Positions 12,601 through 18,992 of a DNA stretch of 64,000 bases are shown piece by piece; position 1 is the first letter of the stretch; the number at the start of each line of letters is the position of its first letter. The notes below the pieces were generated by a model. It did not search any database. It worked only from the letters and a program-made list of their open reading frames with translations, and was not told the origin of the DNA. The DNA lies in the IMG/VR virus record IMGVR_UViG_3300042884_001120, positions 64,001 to 128,000 of that record. One strand, given 5' to 3'. The position numbers and the translations under genes were made by a program. The DNA is from a virus.

Positions 12601-14184
12601 AGATGGTATCTTTAAACTTTTTAAATAATTTAGTTTATTTTGTTCTTCATACCCACTATTAACTACTATATTATCAAAAGTAATTTTTTGAACAAGTTCT
12701 ACGGCATAAGAAAAAACATTCTTAGATAAACCTGACATATTAACACCCGTAGAAACATCATAAGCAGCCCAAATTTTATCATCCGCTGACAGTACTGAAT
12801 AAGTTGGCGGCTTAAAATTTAAATTTTTTACTTTAACACCTTGCCTAACTAGCTGTTGTGGAGAGAAAGTATCTTTAATTTTAAAATTTGTACTATAAAA
12901 ATCTTCATAAAAATAATCTGACACAATAACACCAGCATCTCCAGTAGCGATCCCAGTATAATTAAATTTTGCAAATTCTCCACTATTTTCTAACCAAGAA
13001 TCTCCACTTTTATATAGCCATAAATTTTTATATACCTCTATTGCCGTGTCAGTTGGATAGCTATACCTATCATCGTTTTGATATAATATATTACGACCAG
13101 ATCCATTATTATATATAGTAGATACTTGCAATGGTGAAATTGTTTTATTCCATATAGCAACTTCATCTACTAATCCACTAAATGGATTAAACATAATGTC
13201 TCCACTAACAAAACCGCCAAGACCGAATCCAGTAAATAGTCTATCAAATGTACTTGAATAAGAACCGGCCAAACTACCATTCCAGTACAATTTCATGCCA
13301 ACATTTTGCTGCGATGTTAACACAACATGATTCCATCTATTTGGTAGCCAAGGTTGATATTGTGCAATATTAGCACTCTCCACCCCATCATATACCCAAC
13401 CACCTAATCCAGTATTATCTTTATCAGCTAAAACTAGCGCCTGATTTCTTCCAGTTATTCCAGTTCCAGATATGGTACCAAGCGTCCAAATACAAGAAAG
13501 TTGATCAATGCCGCTCATGTTATAAGCATTAAACCAACAAGAAATAGAGTAATTATTTGGACCAACAACTATTCCAGTAGAGTTAAGGTAGTTAAGTCTG
13601 GAGTCTGAAACAAAAGCTGCGGCAGCGTTATTAATTCCACTTGCAGACCCGACAAAGCCTGATTGTAATAAAGTATTATTTTGCCCATTAATGCTATTGG
13701 GCCTATTTCCGGCAAATTGATTTAGTTTCCAATAAGCAATCAAATCATTAGTTAAAAATCCACTATATATCCCACTTCCACTTCCAATAGTTTGACCAAG
13801 AGAAACTATAGCTCGATTATATTCAGAACCTATAGACCCATTATTAGTAGCTATAATTAAGTTATTTCTTAAAAAATCTCCAGAACCAGAGGTGTAAGTA
13901 GAAATAAATTCAAATTCATCAATAAAATCTAAATTGGTAGTATTAAATACCTCGAAGGCATATTGCCATGTAGGAGTTGGCGTTGGGGTTGGGGTCGGCG
14001 TGGGGGTTGGGGTAGAAGTTGGGGTTGGTGTAGGCTCAGTAACATCCACTAAAATAGCTAAATTATAAGTGTTACCAGCCGAAATACCACTAGCCAATCT
14101 TCCAGTAACTAAATTCGGGACATAGTTCTCCAAAGAGTCGCCAGAACCCCAAGCATATAGATATCCAGTTTGATTAGTTGCCAT
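9697..14184 (-). CDS. Large tail fibre/spike protein: single RCC1 repeat, PT linker, LamG/concanavalin domain, S/T-G-rich body
   Basis: LIAYWKLN...YSISCWFN...WNHVVLT...KLYWNG...FSGLVDEVAIWNKTIS is a LamG_3 pattern; (PT)n linker. Confidence 0.75.
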   Translation of the reverse strand: MATNQTGYLYAWGSGDSLENYVPNLVTGRLASGISAGNTYNLAILVDVTEPTPTPTSTPTPTPTPTPTPTPTWQYAFEVFNTTNLDFIDEFEFISTYTSGSGDFLRNNLIIATNNGSIGSEYNRAIVSLGQTIGSGSGIYSGFLTNDLIAYWKLNQFAGNRPNSINGQNNTLLQSGFVGSASGINNAAAAFVSDSRLNYLNSTGIVVGPNNYSISCWFNAYNMSGIDQLSCIWTLGTISGTGITGRNQALVLADKDNTGLGGWVYDGVESANIAQYQPWLPNRWNHVVLTSQQNVGMKLYWNGSLAGSYSSTFDRLFTGFGLGGFVSGDIMFNPFSGLVDEVAIWNKTISPLQVSTIYNNGSGRNILYQNDDRYSYPTDTAIEVYKNLWLYKSGDSWLENSGEFAKFNYTGIATGDAGVIVSDYFYEDFYSTNFKIKDTFSPQQLVRQGVKVKNLNFKPPTYSVLSADDKIWAAYDVSTGVNMSGLSKNVFSYAVELVQKITFDNIVVNSGYEEQNKLNYLKSLKIPSLSQSTGISFTSYSGYCIKPTECGDIETPEDIVICYTGALSGTAYDQYISGLKSGFKSDPFFKGFDGAASQNTVTQNSSITDFFATRTGEIKYNNFISGDSLSFSLYTYDYTGLYKAYHLNNNPIYPTTGFSLFYPNDFNSIDSLNSALNNRLGRSYPVWYPYECLSGQSSGIYITGSLMQFEKLTGIEYSGKEDYNNIIRFKSLRNYISGFNFSLSLVDRSPQYSETYTKSIKNGFDYLIPDVIEIQGQTNAMRSLDGRWAVLDRRSGLYKLLTGKGDTIKLNMQNDNFLSSGQGMASLDQDFTNEEITLVENPISGGFKTILDLTQLSTLNLKPECGGPIQVSRDIKVETPTGWPIGVNGCSGSDLVDPCAKWSEKLKLNLVQDSEACSKGNVPTIAIKYSFPDTNCYLCSGVTADNIGDKGKSEDVYLSYIRTGWVLDPTGQYLNCWLSNSGYDITNLNFDRYRIVARNFSGVIPAGRESYSIPKNEVYFKNLNLFSALKTGITTHSGQSSCLIGADYTVNIGDIVPLIFSGDYNYTISGDSMSGVYRAYNEEIQYIPTVNEGNVKFLNRSGKYIGNITGFLTRNFTGTGLLSHTFDGYYFYDTGTKEVVFDKTYTKNITGSGIFSTEETIIKKSIVDKATSLGGLFSNNNIYVTGKTSGQFTGLLTGVSYSETGVTGYFYLTGITGGLSNDGYYNQSFMATGSGYYIDNNNYPYYPLITGLQQSTGVVYIDNTKLNNFDFISINNKSISYNDDTLNYLAPDFFNTRAALVDIINNNSGVFLCTGSAFGPSGIILTSIAIGDSGNSITLTSNTSGINIPNPTLIGGKTSYLQMSPSSNFSGMASVSFASTGYYTGYASGAITGYINKFTGVRSFTGVWDIETGMNFNIISYRDNNLLSGLNYYNSIQSNSIGNNSSVIQLRSFYSNILNTLDNEQIDVADIVISGKNFGPSGTGITFRLLGIKNL
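13970..14040 (-). repeat. Pro-Thr tandem repeat (linker)
   Basis: TEPTPTPTSTPTPTPTPTPTPTPT, 6-bp periodicity. Confidence 0.9.
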
Positions 14185-14243
14185 ATTATTCCTTTTGCCT
14201 TATAATATTACACTTGATATATTATTTTTTTAAATTTATATGA

Positions 14244-15071
14244 TTAATAATCATAGTAATAAATGCCCAAACACGGCGGTATTGGCTTTGGAGGAGAACC
14301 GCTAGATTGTGGCGTACTAGTTAATAATAAGCCATGTGGATAATTTATATCAATATCCCTTACTCCAGTTAAACCTGTTGGGAACGGGTTTGGGAAAAGG
14401 CCTTCCTCACCACCCCATATCTGAATACCTGAACCTGCTCCACTATGAAAAGTAACTGTACAGTAATCATCTGCATAGATATCATAAATATCTGCTAAAA
14501 CTGTTGGAAAACTTAATTGACCATAGCTATCGTCTCCCCATCCAGTAATAGTATTATCATTTAACAATGCCACCGCGTGTGTCCATCCAGCCGAGATTTT
14601 TTTTACGCCAGTTAATGAATCACCTCCATATACTCGATTATAATAATCTATTCCCCATCCAGTTATTTTATTTTGTAATGTAATTGCCAATCCGTAGTAT
14701 GAATTTACTGATATAGATTTTATTCCAGTTAGCTTCGGTACAATTTTTTCAGAATACATTTGCCCACAACCAGTTACAGTACTATTGCTATCTAGAATGT
14801 AAGTAGTGTATTGATCCACCGCTATATCAACAGCTGGATAACTAAAATTTGGAATATTTTTTTGTCCAAAATCTGAATCTCCAGTTCCCCAAGCCAGTAC
14901 TTGTCCATTGTCAGTAAGCGCAATAGCGTGTTCTATTCCAGCGGCCACTTTTTTTACATTGTATAGCCCACTAGCAAAATTAAATTTTTCTATAAATTTA
15001 CCTCCGTTTGGTAAATCCAAAGTCTTATTGCTATTATTTCCCCAACCTATTGCTTGTGTTGTTATAATCAT
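14244..15071 (-). CDS. RCC1-repeat protein (six repeats)
   Basis: Repeats such as VAAGIEHAIALTDNGQVLAWG and ISAGWTHAVALLNDNTITGWGDDSYGQ. Confidence 0.85.
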   Translation of the reverse strand: MIITTQAIGWGNNSNKTLDLPNGGKFIEKFNFASGLYNVKKVAAGIEHAIALTDNGQVLAWGTGDSDFGQKNIPNFSYPAVDIAVDQYTTYILDSNSTVTGCGQMYSEKIVPKLTGIKSISVNSYYGLAITLQNKITGWGIDYYNRVYGGDSLTGVKKISAGWTHAVALLNDNTITGWGDDSYGQLSFPTVLADIYDIYADDYCTVTFHSGAGSGIQIWGGEEGLFPNPFPTGLTGVRDIDINYPHGLLLTSTPQSSGSPPKPIPPCLGIYYYDY

Positions 15072-15074
15072 ATA

Positions 15075-18000
15075 TTATGGACATGGGCACCAATCGCCAC
15101 CACAGTCTAATGGTGCGTTTCGAGTTAAAACTGAGCTACCGATTACTAGCGAGGCGCCAGCTGCGGCCTCTTCGCCTTGTAGTTTTTTATTGCTAGCATA
15201 AACTCTAGTATTAGATGCATCAAAAGCCTGCGCTTCGACACTAGCATAAGTCGGTGTCCATAGCGGCATTGGACTAGGCCAAGATACGGTAATGGTATCT
15301 TCCGGCCCATTTAAGGTGCCGACTAATACTGGAGCACATCCAGCAGCTGCCGAATTTCCCGGTGCGGAGGCATACCCACCAGTTCTATAAACTCTTACAG
15401 GATAAGCAATCTCGTCACAACCTGCCGGTGATGATGGGTATGGAACCAATTCGACATCAACCACGCGCTCATGTGGTCTCCAATAACCGCCATCTCTATC
15501 AAATACACCGTCGGGACAGTTCGAGTCTAATGGTATGTCAAATTTACTAAAAGCAAAATTTCCTCGATGTACTATTAACTGTAAAGTTCCTCTTGAAGAT
15601 GGTTTTATAAAAGACACTGGATATCTATATATAAAACTAAAATTATTATTAGTTCTTGTTATAAGTGACTGCATCCCGCCATTTCTTCTATCATAAACAA
15701 TTCTTCCGCCATTAACTAGGTAAACTCTATAATCCACACTAGGATCACCCCCCATAATCTCTCCATCAATAACCCATGTACTACCACAAACATTAGAGTT
15801 CTCACAACAATATGCTTGAGATAGATTTACTCCATATTCAAACGGTGTACCTCGACCATTTATGGTGGGAAATTCTGGACACTCTCTAGGTGGTGGTGTG
15901 GGTCGTGGCGGATATACGGTTGGTGGAGGATTAAATACGTTGTCACAATCCGGACATTGTGGCGGTTCTGGCGGTTCTGGCGGTTCTGGTGGTTCTGGAG
16001 GCTGTGGCGGCTCTGGAGGCTCTGGAGGCTGTGGTGGTTCTGGGGGTTCTGGCGGTTCTGGTGGCTGAGGCGGAGGGGGCAATATATTTGGATCTATAAG
16101 CTTAAAATCTATAAAAGAACTATTATTGTAAGGATACACCACCTCGTTAACTGGTGTTACAGTTTTTGAGCAATTGCCGGACTCATCATCATATAGTGAA
16201 AAGGTAGCTGTTGTTCTTGCATAATTAACCGAAGGATGTTCAAATATATTACCAAGTTTATAATTTGTATTAACTTGAAGGGATAAGGTTCCATTGCTAG
16301 TTTTTTCGTATTTACTGTTTGGGTAAACTGGTATAGCAAAATACTTAACGCTTTCATTAGGTTTTAGTATATAATCAAATATAAAACCACTAATTCTATT
16401 TTCATCTGAAAGATAGGGCAAATTATTATTTGTATTTTGAAATTGGGCAACCAATGTTCCACTTTGCGTATAATTTGTATATCCAGTTCTATTAACTTGA
16501 AAAGCAATATATTGATCTTTCTCGCATCCAGTATAGTCGCTATGACTCAAATAAATATTAGAAGACATTTGGCTTGGCACTATATTTTTAGATCTTAATT
16601 CTAAAGTATGATAACCAGTAGAAAAATTTTGAGTAACATTTAATCCACCAGTTTGTCCTAATAAATTGTTATTATAATTTATGTAATACCCACCACTCCA
16701 CTGCGTACCAGTTCTCGTTTTTTCATAAAAAACATTTCCAAAACCTGTTTTAACAACTATTTCAGATGGTGCCACTTTATACAATATATTTTTATTATAA
16801 AATACACCCGTAGTACCAGTAAAAAACCCCAAAACCCCACTAACGTTCATACCAGAATAAACGCCGGAAGATATAAAATAACCTGTTTCAAAATTTAAAT
16901 AATTCAATTTATAGAAATTAGCATATAGCATTTCTCCAGTTGTTACTGATTTGAAATTAAATGACAATGGATATTGTATATAACTTTTACCTGTAATTTT
17001 AAAATTAACACTAGTATAATCTTCATCATCAAATAAATTATACTTACCAGATACGTATGTTATGTTTTGATATTGGGAAACTTTCTTATAGCCAGTTTCT
17101 TCCGTTGTTAATAATGGCTGTTTCCAACCTAGAAAATCTATTCCATAGCCTGAAATTTTGCTATTATCTTTTGATATATAACCACCGGTAAAATATGGTT
17201 TTTGATATATATTATCATATACACCACTAGTCCCGCCTATGGTTGTTCTTTTATATTGATAACCACCAATTCCAGTATTTTTTTCATAAACAAATTCACC
17301 GCTATCAACAGGTAAATTATATAATTTAACTATAGGTGTAAAAACTCCAGTTTCATCTTCCAAAGAAATGGAGTTAGGTATTCCAGTTACAGGAATTTCA
17401 AAATCTAAATCTATTTCGTCACATCCAGCAAAACTTTTTCCAGTGGATATTATTTGTGAAATTATACCTGTTGTGAACTTAGTTTCATCAAACTTATCTT
17501 TAATTGGATTAAAATTTTCTATTAAATTAGTATTCCCACTAACCATTCCACTAAATGGCCTTGAAAATACATAATAACCGGGTTCATATATTGAACCGAA
17601 GTCGCCCATAAACTTGCCAGAAAGCCTTTCTCCAGTTGCAAAACCATATCCAATTAGGCGAATTTTATCTGTAAAATTTCCAGTAACAAATATTGTTGGA
17701 CTGGTTAAATTAATAATTTCCAAATCCTTGGAAGCAAAATCACCAGTAATTTTTCCAGTATATGGCACGAATCCATTGAAATTACCACCACTAGATATAA
17801 TTCCATATACAAACTGATTAAATATAACTCCAGAAGCGTTACCAGTAATATTGCCACCAGTAACATTGCCACCTAAATAAGAAATGTATCCACTATAATT
17901 TATATTATTTGAATAGCCAGTTGCTAATAGGTCAGTAGTTCCTTGTATATCACCAATACCAGTAGCCAATGTACTATAAAAACCACTTACAATCTTATCA

Positions 18001-18992
18001 TCCGATATTTTATATAAAGAACCTAATCCGGTTCCAGTTCCAAATTCGTATTGTGAATTTAGCGCGTTTAAACCACTTAATAATCCAGTTATATTTCCAG
18101 ATAAATACCCAGTACCAGAAATAAATCCTGATACTATTCCAGAATTTTGAAATCCAGTAGACTCTACATTTCTATAATAATTTCCAGTTATTCCGCTAAC
18201 GTAATTCAAACCTATACTTAAATCAACACCAGAAGGATTTCTGAAAGATATATTATATAAATTATAGTTATTATTATAAATCGTATCATTTTCTGGCCCA
18301 AACGTAAGATAATATAAATCATCAGTAATTAGTCTACCAGAAATTTGAACGTATAAATCTTTTTTACCAATATCGCTATATATTGATATAGGTATATCTT
18401 GTGTTGCGGTATTGCCAGTTAACGAATTAACAATAAAGAAAGATGCGTTACCGTTAGCTGGAACAACTAAATTTGTTGCACCACTTAATGTAAAATTTCT
18501 ATTATTTGTACTGCCAGAAAATATAGTAAATGGACTAGATCCACTATTATATATAGTAAATGGAACTATCTCTCCAGCATAGAATACCAAGAATGGATTG
18601 TATGAAGTTTGTGGCGTTTTTCCTAAAATTGTTAAATTATTTAAATTAACACATTGTCCACTAACATCTTTAAGAACCACCTTATTCAGATCGCCAGTAG
18701 TATTTCTCTCTAAACCCAAATATAAAGGTATGTTATTTTTATATAAATCTAATGTTTTTGTACCAATATTTCCGGATAACCCCAAAATTTCATTGTTCAG
18801 ATATGAACCAACTACTTCGTTCTTTGGCGAAAGAATCTTACCATTATGAAGAGTAAATATATTACAATTACCACCGATCCCAGAAAAAGATGCCGAAAAT
18901 TTTCCATAAGTGTTTGCAATTTCATATGAAGAACTCCAATTTATACTTTTTTGTGGATAGATTGTCCTATACCTTTCACCTGTAATTACCAT
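15075..18992 (-). CDS. Large tail protein: S/T-G-rich region, Calx-beta-like domain, Pro-rich linker, Cys-rich C-terminus
   Basis: E...FQVNRTG...PNESVKYFAIPV...YE...ATFSLYDDE resembles Calx-beta; position after the baseplate genes. Confidence 0.65.
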   Translation of the reverse strand: MVITGERYRTIYPQKSINWSSSYEIANTYGKFSASFSGIGGNCNIFTLHNGKILSPKNEVVGSYLNNEILGLSGNIGTKTLDLYKNNIPLYLGLERNTTGDLNKVVLKDVSGQCVNLNNLTILGKTPQTSYNPFLVFYAGEIVPFTIYNSGSSPFTIFSGSTNNRNFTLSGATNLVVPANGNASFFIVNSLTGNTATQDIPISIYSDIGKKDLYVQISGRLITDDLYYLTFGPENDTIYNNNYNLYNISFRNPSGVDLSIGLNYVSGITGNYYRNVESTGFQNSGIVSGFISGTGYLSGNITGLLSGLNALNSQYEFGTGTGLGSLYKISDDKIVSGFYSTLATGIGDIQGTTDLLATGYSNNINYSGYISYLGGNVTGGNITGNASGVIFNQFVYGIISSGGNFNGFVPYTGKITGDFASKDLEIINLTSPTIFVTGNFTDKIRLIGYGFATGERLSGKFMGDFGSIYEPGYYVFSRPFSGMVSGNTNLIENFNPIKDKFDETKFTTGIISQIISTGKSFAGCDEIDLDFEIPVTGIPNSISLEDETGVFTPIVKLYNLPVDSGEFVYEKNTGIGGYQYKRTTIGGTSGVYDNIYQKPYFTGGYISKDNSKISGYGIDFLGWKQPLLTTEETGYKKVSQYQNITYVSGKYNLFDDEDYTSVNFKITGKSYIQYPLSFNFKSVTTGEMLYANFYKLNYLNFETGYFISSGVYSGMNVSGVLGFFTGTTGVFYNKNILYKVAPSEIVVKTGFGNVFYEKTRTGTQWSGGYYINYNNNLLGQTGGLNVTQNFSTGYHTLELRSKNIVPSQMSSNIYLSHSDYTGCEKDQYIAFQVNRTGYTNYTQSGTLVAQFQNTNNNLPYLSDENRISGFIFDYILKPNESVKYFAIPVYPNSKYEKTSNGTLSLQVNTNYKLGNIFEHPSVNYARTTATFSLYDDESGNCSKTVTPVNEVVYPYNNSSFIDFKLIDPNILPPPPQPPEPPEPPEPPQPPEPPEPPQPPEPPEPPEPPEPPQCPDCDNVFNPPPTVYPPRPTPPPRECPEFPTINGRGTPFEYGVNLSQAYCCENSNVCGSTWVIDGEIMGGDPSVDYRVYLVNGGRIVYDRRNGGMQSLITRTNNNFSFIYRYPVSFIKPSSRGTLQLIVHRGNFAFSKFDIPLDSNCPDGVFDRDGGYWRPHERVVDVELVPYPSSPAGCDEIAYPVRVYRTGGYASAPGNSAAAGCAPVLVGTLNGPEDTITVSWPSPMPLWTPTYASVEAQAFDASNTRVYASNKKLQGEEAAAGASLVIGSSVLTRNAPLDCGGDWCPCP
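15958..16080 (-). repeat. (PPE/PPQ)n 9-bp tandem repeat
   Basis: Units such as GGCGGTTCT/GGAGGCTGT encoding PPQPPEPPEPPEPPQ. Confidence 0.9.

Follow-up and report, generated by a model that had tools for sequence, protein, structure and literature searches.

Does a phage build one beta-propeller out of the products of two genes? The question is raised by a locus in IMG/VR virus record IMGVR_UViG_3300042884_001120, of which we analyzed bases 64001-128000 (a stretch of 64,000 nucleotides, referred to here as the window). Two adjacent genes at this locus encode P0001, a protein made of repeats of the RCC1/BLIP-II type, and P0002, a giant tail fiber. An earlier reading of the sequence (the original prediction) held that P0001 contains six such repeats, that P0002 opens with exactly one followed by a Pro/Thr linker and, as RCC1 propellers have seven blades, that the ring is completed in trans and acts as a snap-on coupling that tethers an exchangeable head to the fiber. 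Comparison with related loci indicates that the six-repeat protein and the lone repeat very likely form a docking pair. On balance we lean toward the view that they are the two halves, joined in trans, of a single seven-bladed propeller of the RCC1/BLIP-II type.

P0001 contains six RCC1-type repeats and P0002 a single one

P0001 matched the Pfam family RCC1_2 (PF13540) at 89 bits (cut-off 22, E 1.2e-25) and the family RCC1 (PF00415) at 22.4 bits (cut-off 21.7). A repeat hidden Markov model (HMM) built for this analysis found exactly six domains in the protein, with E values from 2e-6 to 7e-17. Assignment of secondary structure by DSSP in the AlphaFold2 (AF2) model of P0001 gave six c strands and six a-b hairpins in the order c1-[a b c]x5-a6 b6, each repeat unit consisting of strand c (xxxWG) and then the hairpin a-b ((I/V)SAG and hxLAL strands). 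The positions of the sequence motifs, the repeat HMM and the predicted secondary structure thus agree on the six repeats originally predicted. A seventh repeat hidden within P0001, which would have spoken against that prediction, was considered and rejected based on the six HMM domains and on the tail of the protein, residues 258-275 being disordered in the AF2 model (predicted local distance difference test, pLDDT, <50). Neither P0001 nor any of the eight relatives in which repeats were counted has the seven repeats in one polypeptide that are expected of an RCC1-like propeller.

The disordered tail of P0001 carries a motif built on a Cys and aromatic residues, which is kept in the relatives P0004-7, P0108, P0118 and in the loci L010 and L012. 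The tail of P0119 retains the Cys with a degenerate aromatic part, and that of L015 is without the Cys. The tail is possibly a latch or a second docking peptide.

Residues 5-46 of P0002 align end to end, and in register, with the six repeats of P0001. The unit carries the full signature of an RCC1 repeat: WG, P, TG, (I/V)SAG and a hydrophobic b strand. When a profile of nine orthologous lone repeats was compared with an RCC1-repeat profile by hhalign, 36 columns were aligned in register with an E value of 1.7e-5 and a probability of 79%, a clearer signal than the P0002 unit gives as a single sequence (see below). The opening of the fiber by one repeat and a linker is as first described. An HMM of the lone repeat had a single match across the 154-kb genome. 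When viral contigs were searched with the alignment of lone repeats, matches were obtained only in the contig of L002 and in L008. What was matched in L008 is one of the many RCC1 repeats inside a protein of at least 3395 aa, and it is nothing out of the ordinary. L008 is a 17-kb viral contig filled by this one open frame (L008:1-10185), which has a ConA-like insert and otherwise consists mostly of RCC1 repeats of canonical form.

The six-plus-one arrangement is conserved among relatives

Homologs of the P0002 fiber body are found in the proteins P0017-P0021 and at the loci L002-L015. Six distinct loci, the window included, carry a lone repeat (the window, L002, L003, L009/L010, L012 and L015); they look independent of one another and all belong to one clade. 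Repeats could be counted in nine six-repeat modules, these being P0001, P0004-7, P0108, P0118, P0119 and the module of L015, which forms the C-terminal part of an 859-aa protein. The count was six in 9/9, over identities of the relatives that range from 22 to 88% (55-88% to P0001 in the case of P0004-7), and neither fusions at the N- or C-terminus nor a large insert that separates repeat 5 from repeat 6 altered it. The modules of L010 and L012 share the six-repeat layout, with a degenerate sixth c motif in L010.

The two components also occur together. At all six lone-repeat loci a gap of 5-59 nt separates the end of the six-repeat module from the downstream gene with the lone repeat, and the module is absent from all five related loci that are without a lone repeat (L004, L005, L006, L013 and L014). 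Among these five, L005 alone has seven repeats in cis: this distant fiber homolog (25% identity) carries seven RCC1 repeats at the N-terminus of the fiber itself (L005:8471-9800), with an insert of about 135 aa after repeat 2 and without a separate six-repeat gene. Paralogous domains with seven repeats in cis are likewise found at the N-termini of P0021 and of the L015 protein.

The position of the lone repeat within the fiber is variable. It is N-terminal in P0017, P0018, P0019/L002, L010 and L012, and internal in three other fibers, where it follows an N-terminal domain and a Pro/Thr linker (P0020), a seven-repeat propeller of its own and an unassigned region (P0021), or seven copies of a repeat of about 120 aa that is Ig-like by eye (L015). 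In the fibers read, the lone repeat is succeeded by a Pro-rich linker, and in P0020 one also precedes it, which rules out that the unit is part of a larger fold in cis. The lone repeat is conserved no less than the fiber body, with a mean pairwise identity of 52% versus 44%, and in a repeat-by-repeat similarity matrix the lone repeat outscores most of the six repeats in comparisons between lineages.

These data make it very likely that the six-repeat protein and the lone repeat form a docking pair: the numbers six and one stay constant amid domain shuffling, the paralogous domains in cis and the solved relatives have seven repeats, the lone repeat keeps its register, the two genes are adjacent, and the unit is a linker-flanked segment of only 40 residues.

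The two genes represent an old split

A different explanation for adjacent genes with six repeats and one repeat is that a single gene was recently broken or is recoded, whether as a pseudogene, through a sequencing frameshift, or as a fusion made by programmed frameshifting or read-through. In the window the genes are 59 nt apart and out of frame (15071-14184 = 887 = 3x295+2) with a GTGTAA motif between them, all as first described. The frame relation differs among loci: the two open reading frames (ORFs) share a frame, with one stop codon between them, in L002 and L015, but not in the window, L003, L010 and L012. The in-frame loci L002 and L015, together with the seven repeats in cis of L005, are what a broken or recoded gene would predict. 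Against it stand the variable frame and the sequences that lie between the parts, namely the conserved 20-aa tail of the six-repeat protein and the promoter-like AGTGTAAT, which is kept 14-23 nt before the fiber start in four loci (the window, L002, L010 and L012). The split is also old. In a tree of the fiber body the fibers with a lone repeat form one well-supported clade with deep internal branches, and the split has been retained over branch lengths of 1-2 substitutions per site. The variable frame relation combined with the retention of AGTGTAAT excludes both recent breakage and a recoding event conserved among the loci, and the comparative evidence as a whole leads us to reject this explanation as extremely improbable. 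The survey of homologs thus shows a split that is conserved within the clade.

The GTGTAA motif is on the minus strand at 14213-14208, 23 nt ahead of the P0002 ATG. The motif is under-represented genome-wide (76 sites versus about 105 expected), and 30 of the 76 sites are found no more than 60 nt upstream of an ATG-started ORF of at least 60 aa. In its behavior GTGTAA(T/A) resembles a promoter element of the phage.

A seven-bladed propeller may be completed in trans

We used AF2 to predict the structure of P0001, the run being made with 14 sequences. The model of P0001 alone had a pLDDT of 80 and a predicted template modeling score (pTM) of 0.81. The central blades had pLDDT values above 90; the two ends, which form the seam of the ring, had the lowest confidence (57-80). 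The best fold match was BLIP-II (Z 23.8, root-mean-square deviation 3.0 Å, 228/271 residues, 23% identity), and other matches to RCC1-like folds included HERC2 RLD3 and Prp20 (both Z 20.4). Every solved RCC1-like structure matched is a seven-bladed single chain, with no six-repeat or split structure among them.

The predicted structure suggests how the two proteins could fit together. A structural blade in the P0001 model consists of a(n), b(n) and c(n+1), and P0001 consequently has five full blades and two free ends, strand c1 at the N-terminus and the hairpin a6-b6 at the C-terminus. When this layout is followed by a lone c-a-b unit, the result is the exact layout of a complete seven-blade chain. 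We infer from this a physical complex in which P0001 would supply strand c1, the five complete three-stranded blades and the hairpin a6-b6. The 40-residue lone repeat, held on its Pro-rich tethers, would contribute strand c to finish blade 6, and its a-b hairpin would form blade 7, to be closed by the N-terminal strand c1 of P0001. The donated unit would then straddle two blades shared between the chains, a double Velcro, and the joining ratio would be 1:1 per fiber chain. Note that strand c1 could also pair with a6-b6 and close P0001 alone, so the sequence by itself cannot choose between the two arrangements. Completion of the ring in trans is the most economical mechanism for a docking pair of this kind.

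Several results weigh against completion of the ring in trans. The P0001 model aligned to BLIP-II from first to last residue with about one blade skipped, and the matches to unrelated folds were nearly all six-bladed (TolB, tectonin, NHL, YWTD and sialidases), seven-bladed WD40 proteins being almost absent. Based on the alignment ranges and the list of matches, the monomer model appears to be a closed six-fold ring. Closure of P0001 by itself is the outcome that the original prediction recognized as contrary to it, and the model points in that direction. It weighs only weakly against completion in trans, because AF2 run without a partner tends to satisfy free edges and because the seam is the least confident part of the model. 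Prediction for the product of read-through in L002, where the two parts are naturally in frame (836 aa, with TAA read as a residue), gave no usable complex to set beside it: the pLDDT was 45, neither strand c1 nor the lone repeat was folded, and the model is uninformative. In addition, the lone repeat of P0002 is missed by Pfam even at E<=1, and it scores a modest 11 bits against the generic repeat HMM (shuffled sequences had a 95th percentile of 4.1 and a maximum of 13.6). The lone-repeat fibers form one clade, and their co-occurrence with the six-repeat module may therefore reflect a single origin and not repeated selection. Finally, the similarity matrix gave no diagonal, as would indicate positional orthology, between the six-plus-one units and the seven-repeat domains in cis; fission from an L005-type ancestor is accordingly neither supported nor excluded.

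The closed-ring model and the single clade of lone-repeat fibers are the observations that would favor P0001 being a self-sufficient six-bladed propeller, and the number of blades is known to be plastic in propellers. The lone repeats of what is presumably a trimeric fiber would then form a foldon-like trimerization knot of three hairpins, and the co-occurrence would be historical, from the copying of part of a neighboring gene. Such an arrangement leaves unexplained the constant six and the constant one, given the seven repeats of the paralogs in cis, as well as an adjacency that survives heavy domain shuffling; in addition, we know of no precedent for a three-bladed assembly of the RCC1 type. 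We consider it unlikely. The lone repeat might instead dock without entering the ring, bound as a peptide or edge strand on the face or rim of a closed six-bladed P0001. Co-occurrence and conservation suit any mode of docking, the ring appears closed in the AF2 model, and binding of peptides on the faces of propellers is common. The full RCC1 signature and the register that the lone unit keeps would be superfluous in a surface ligand, and docking of this type seems to us improbable. The original prediction thus has partial support: the comparative data strongly back a functional six-plus-one pair, and insertion of the lone repeat as a blade would be a further step, proposed in the face of a monomer model that appears closed.

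A proposed constant joint with variable accessories

The six-repeat modules and fibers differ widely in the domains attached to them. Between repeats 5 and 6 an insert of 450-580 aa with BNR repeats is found in L002, a large insert without assignment in L010, and a short insert in P0108; that of L012 is of another kind. In P0119 and L015 the module is preceded by an MBG Ig-like domain, and extra C-terminal domains are present in P0006 and P0108. In the proposed mechanism the joint would be a constant docking interface of which both sides bear variable accessories, including inserts (a BNR propeller or others), Ig/MBG domains and additional propellers of seven repeats. We judge it marginally the better bet that the phage uses completion of an RCC1-type propeller between chains as a generic plug-and-socket fiber joint, with the six-repeat protein as socket and the tethered 40-residue repeat as plug, around which enzymes, lectin-like propellers and Ig domains are swapped. 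The notion of an exchangeable head tethered to the fiber proves too simple, in that variable accessory domains are found on each of the two partners; what looks constant is the joint itself, with accessories changing on either side.

The loop between repeats 5 and 6 is a hot spot for insertion (L002:7652-9958, L010:1869-4916, L012:2164-4365 and protein P0108). P0108 has a small beta domain alone at this site, and L002 has that domain plus the BNR-repeat region. By eye the L012 insert resembles a metallophosphatase, and its GDxH and FHHPP motifs are phosphoesterase-like; it had no Pfam match at E<=0.001 and the assignment is not claimed. The six-repeat gene of L012 also has one in-frame TGA within the insert (L012:3505-3507), after which no further stop interrupts the frame up to the end of the last repeat and of the conserved tail. 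This TGA could be read through, could stem from a sequencing error, or could mark a pseudogene of recent origin. In L015, two successive ORFs between the lone-repeat ORF and the fiber body (L015:6400-7480) end in partial RCC1 arrays, the first of one repeat and the second of three repeats behind a long Pro/Thr linker. These may be more pieces of split propellers, an inserted cassette or frameshifts of the assembly.

Comparison with known propellers and fiber joints

The closest parallel is with Sec13, whose six-bladed propeller is open until a single blade of Nup145C, Sec31 or Sec16 closes it in trans, the N-terminal strand of Sec13 serving as Velcro (PMC2922654). As in the pairs of Sec13 with these proteins and of Seh1 with Nup85, a six-blade partner is found here together with one blade-sized unit that lies beside a linker in another protein, and the pairing is kept in six loci. 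The eukaryotic proteins differ in having WD40 propellers with four-stranded blades and an alpha-solenoid (ACE1) partner, whereas the phage proteins have three-stranded blades of the RCC1/BLIP-II type and a beta-rich fiber partner with a Laminin_G_3 domain, encoded in a tail-fiber module. Furthermore, the donated unit would straddle two blades in the phage, and the complex, observed for the eukaryotic proteins, is here a proposed one. The likeness to Sec13 is one of analogy, not homology. Sec31 has a seven-bladed propeller of its own ahead of its insertion blade, an order that parallels those of P0021 and L015.

BLIP-II, the Streptomyces beta-lactamase inhibitor protein II (PDB 1jtd/3qhy), resembles P0001 in its short RCC1-like repeats of about 40 aa and its three-stranded blades. 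It differs in being a secreted enzyme inhibitor whose single chain holds seven repeats, against the six of P0001, which also has the conserved Cys/aromatic tail. P0001 also belongs to the sequence family, and has the fold, of the RCC1-like domains (RCC1, HERC2 RLD, UVR8 and RPGR; PF00415, PF13540 and PF25390), from which it is set apart by the single-chain, seven-bladed form of all the solved members matched. Among phage structures, the T4 gp34-gp37 junctions and the branched tailspike adaptors of the G7C and CBA120 type attach receptor-binding proteins in a modular, swappable manner through an N-terminal docking element, and the element proposed here would be modular in the same way. To our knowledge none of the phage fiber or tailspike adaptor joints completes a beta-propeller across chains, and no homology to the known joints was detected when P0002 and P0003, the protein encoded upstream of P0001, were searched against PHROG.

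Completion of propellers in trans is known to us only from eukaryotic membrane-coat and nuclear-pore proteins, and the papers searched yielded no account of a phage propeller that is split or completed in trans. If the proposed structure is correct, it would be the first propeller of the RCC1 type to be completed in trans, and the first of any type outside the coat and pore proteins of eukaryotes. It would represent an independent origin of this mode of completion and a new kind of joint for the assembly and diversification of phage fibers. The pair would also provide a small, genetically encoded coupling for protein engineering, composed of a tag of about 40 residues and a socket of 275 aa.

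Genomic setting

The record from which the window is taken is a 154,360-bp genome of an uncultured phage, with direct terminal repeats and a G+C content of about 32%. The locus lies within a long minus-strand tail module and is preceded in transcription order by a tape measure protein of 1929 aa. The module is made up of successive very large fiber-like proteins, none of which is named by PHROG or Pfam; P0002 and P0003 had zero PHROG matches. BLAST against deposited phages found no near relative, the sole match being a 30%-identical RCC1 gene of Marinobacter phage PS6, and searches of viral and metagenome contigs with P0001 or its alignment gave no matches. The features of the locus are listed in Table 1.

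Table 1. Positions of the features discussed, in window coordinates except where a related locus is named.
Feature	Position	Strand	Description	Basis
P0002	9697-14184	-	Giant tail fiber, 1495 aa	
Fiber body of P0002	9697..13968	-	Laminin_G_3/ConA-like domain at residues 199-355 (Pfam); conserved C-terminal ~1000 aa	
Linker of P0002, residues 47-72	13969..14046	-	Pro/Thr-rich, flexible, 26 residues	Translation
Lone RCC1-type repeat, P0002 residues 1-46	14047..14184	-	Strands c, a, b	Register alignment, hhalign, orthologs
Intergenic spacer	14185..14243	-	59 nt; AGTGTAAT and AAGGA Shine-Dalgarno-like site ahead of fiber ATG	
P0001	14244..15071	-	275 aa, six short (37-51 aa) RCC1/BLIP-II-type repeats	Pfam, repeat HMM, AF2
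C-terminal tail of P0001, residues 257-275	14247..14303	-	Predicted disordered; conserved motif P-x-C-x(2-4)-aromatic x3-D	
P0003	15075..18992	-	1305-aa fiber-like protein upstream of P0001; context, possible third partner	ORF list, sequence
AGTGTAAT in relatives	L002:9980-9987, L010:4938-4945, L012:4373-4380		In spacer before fiber gene	

The stop codon of P0003 is only 3 nt ahead of the P0001 start, and the two genes may be translationally coupled. The 3-nt gap hints at a physical order of P0003, P0001 and P0002. A six-repeat gene that starts 3-5 nt after the stop of the upstream protein is found in both the window and L002. In L003 alone, the six-repeat gene is separated from the gene of the large upstream protein by a 310-aa ORF (L003:6569-7501) with no Pfam match at E<=0.01. 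The large upstream proteins of the window (15075-18992), L002 (L002:3477-7646), L003 (L003:2581-6522) and L005 (L005:1803-7415) are syntenic and have similar N-termini with the signature M-x-I-[TS]-G-x-x-[YIK]-R-x-I-Y-x-Q; their C-termini are variable and Cys-rich. P0003 also contains a long (PEPPEP)n run.

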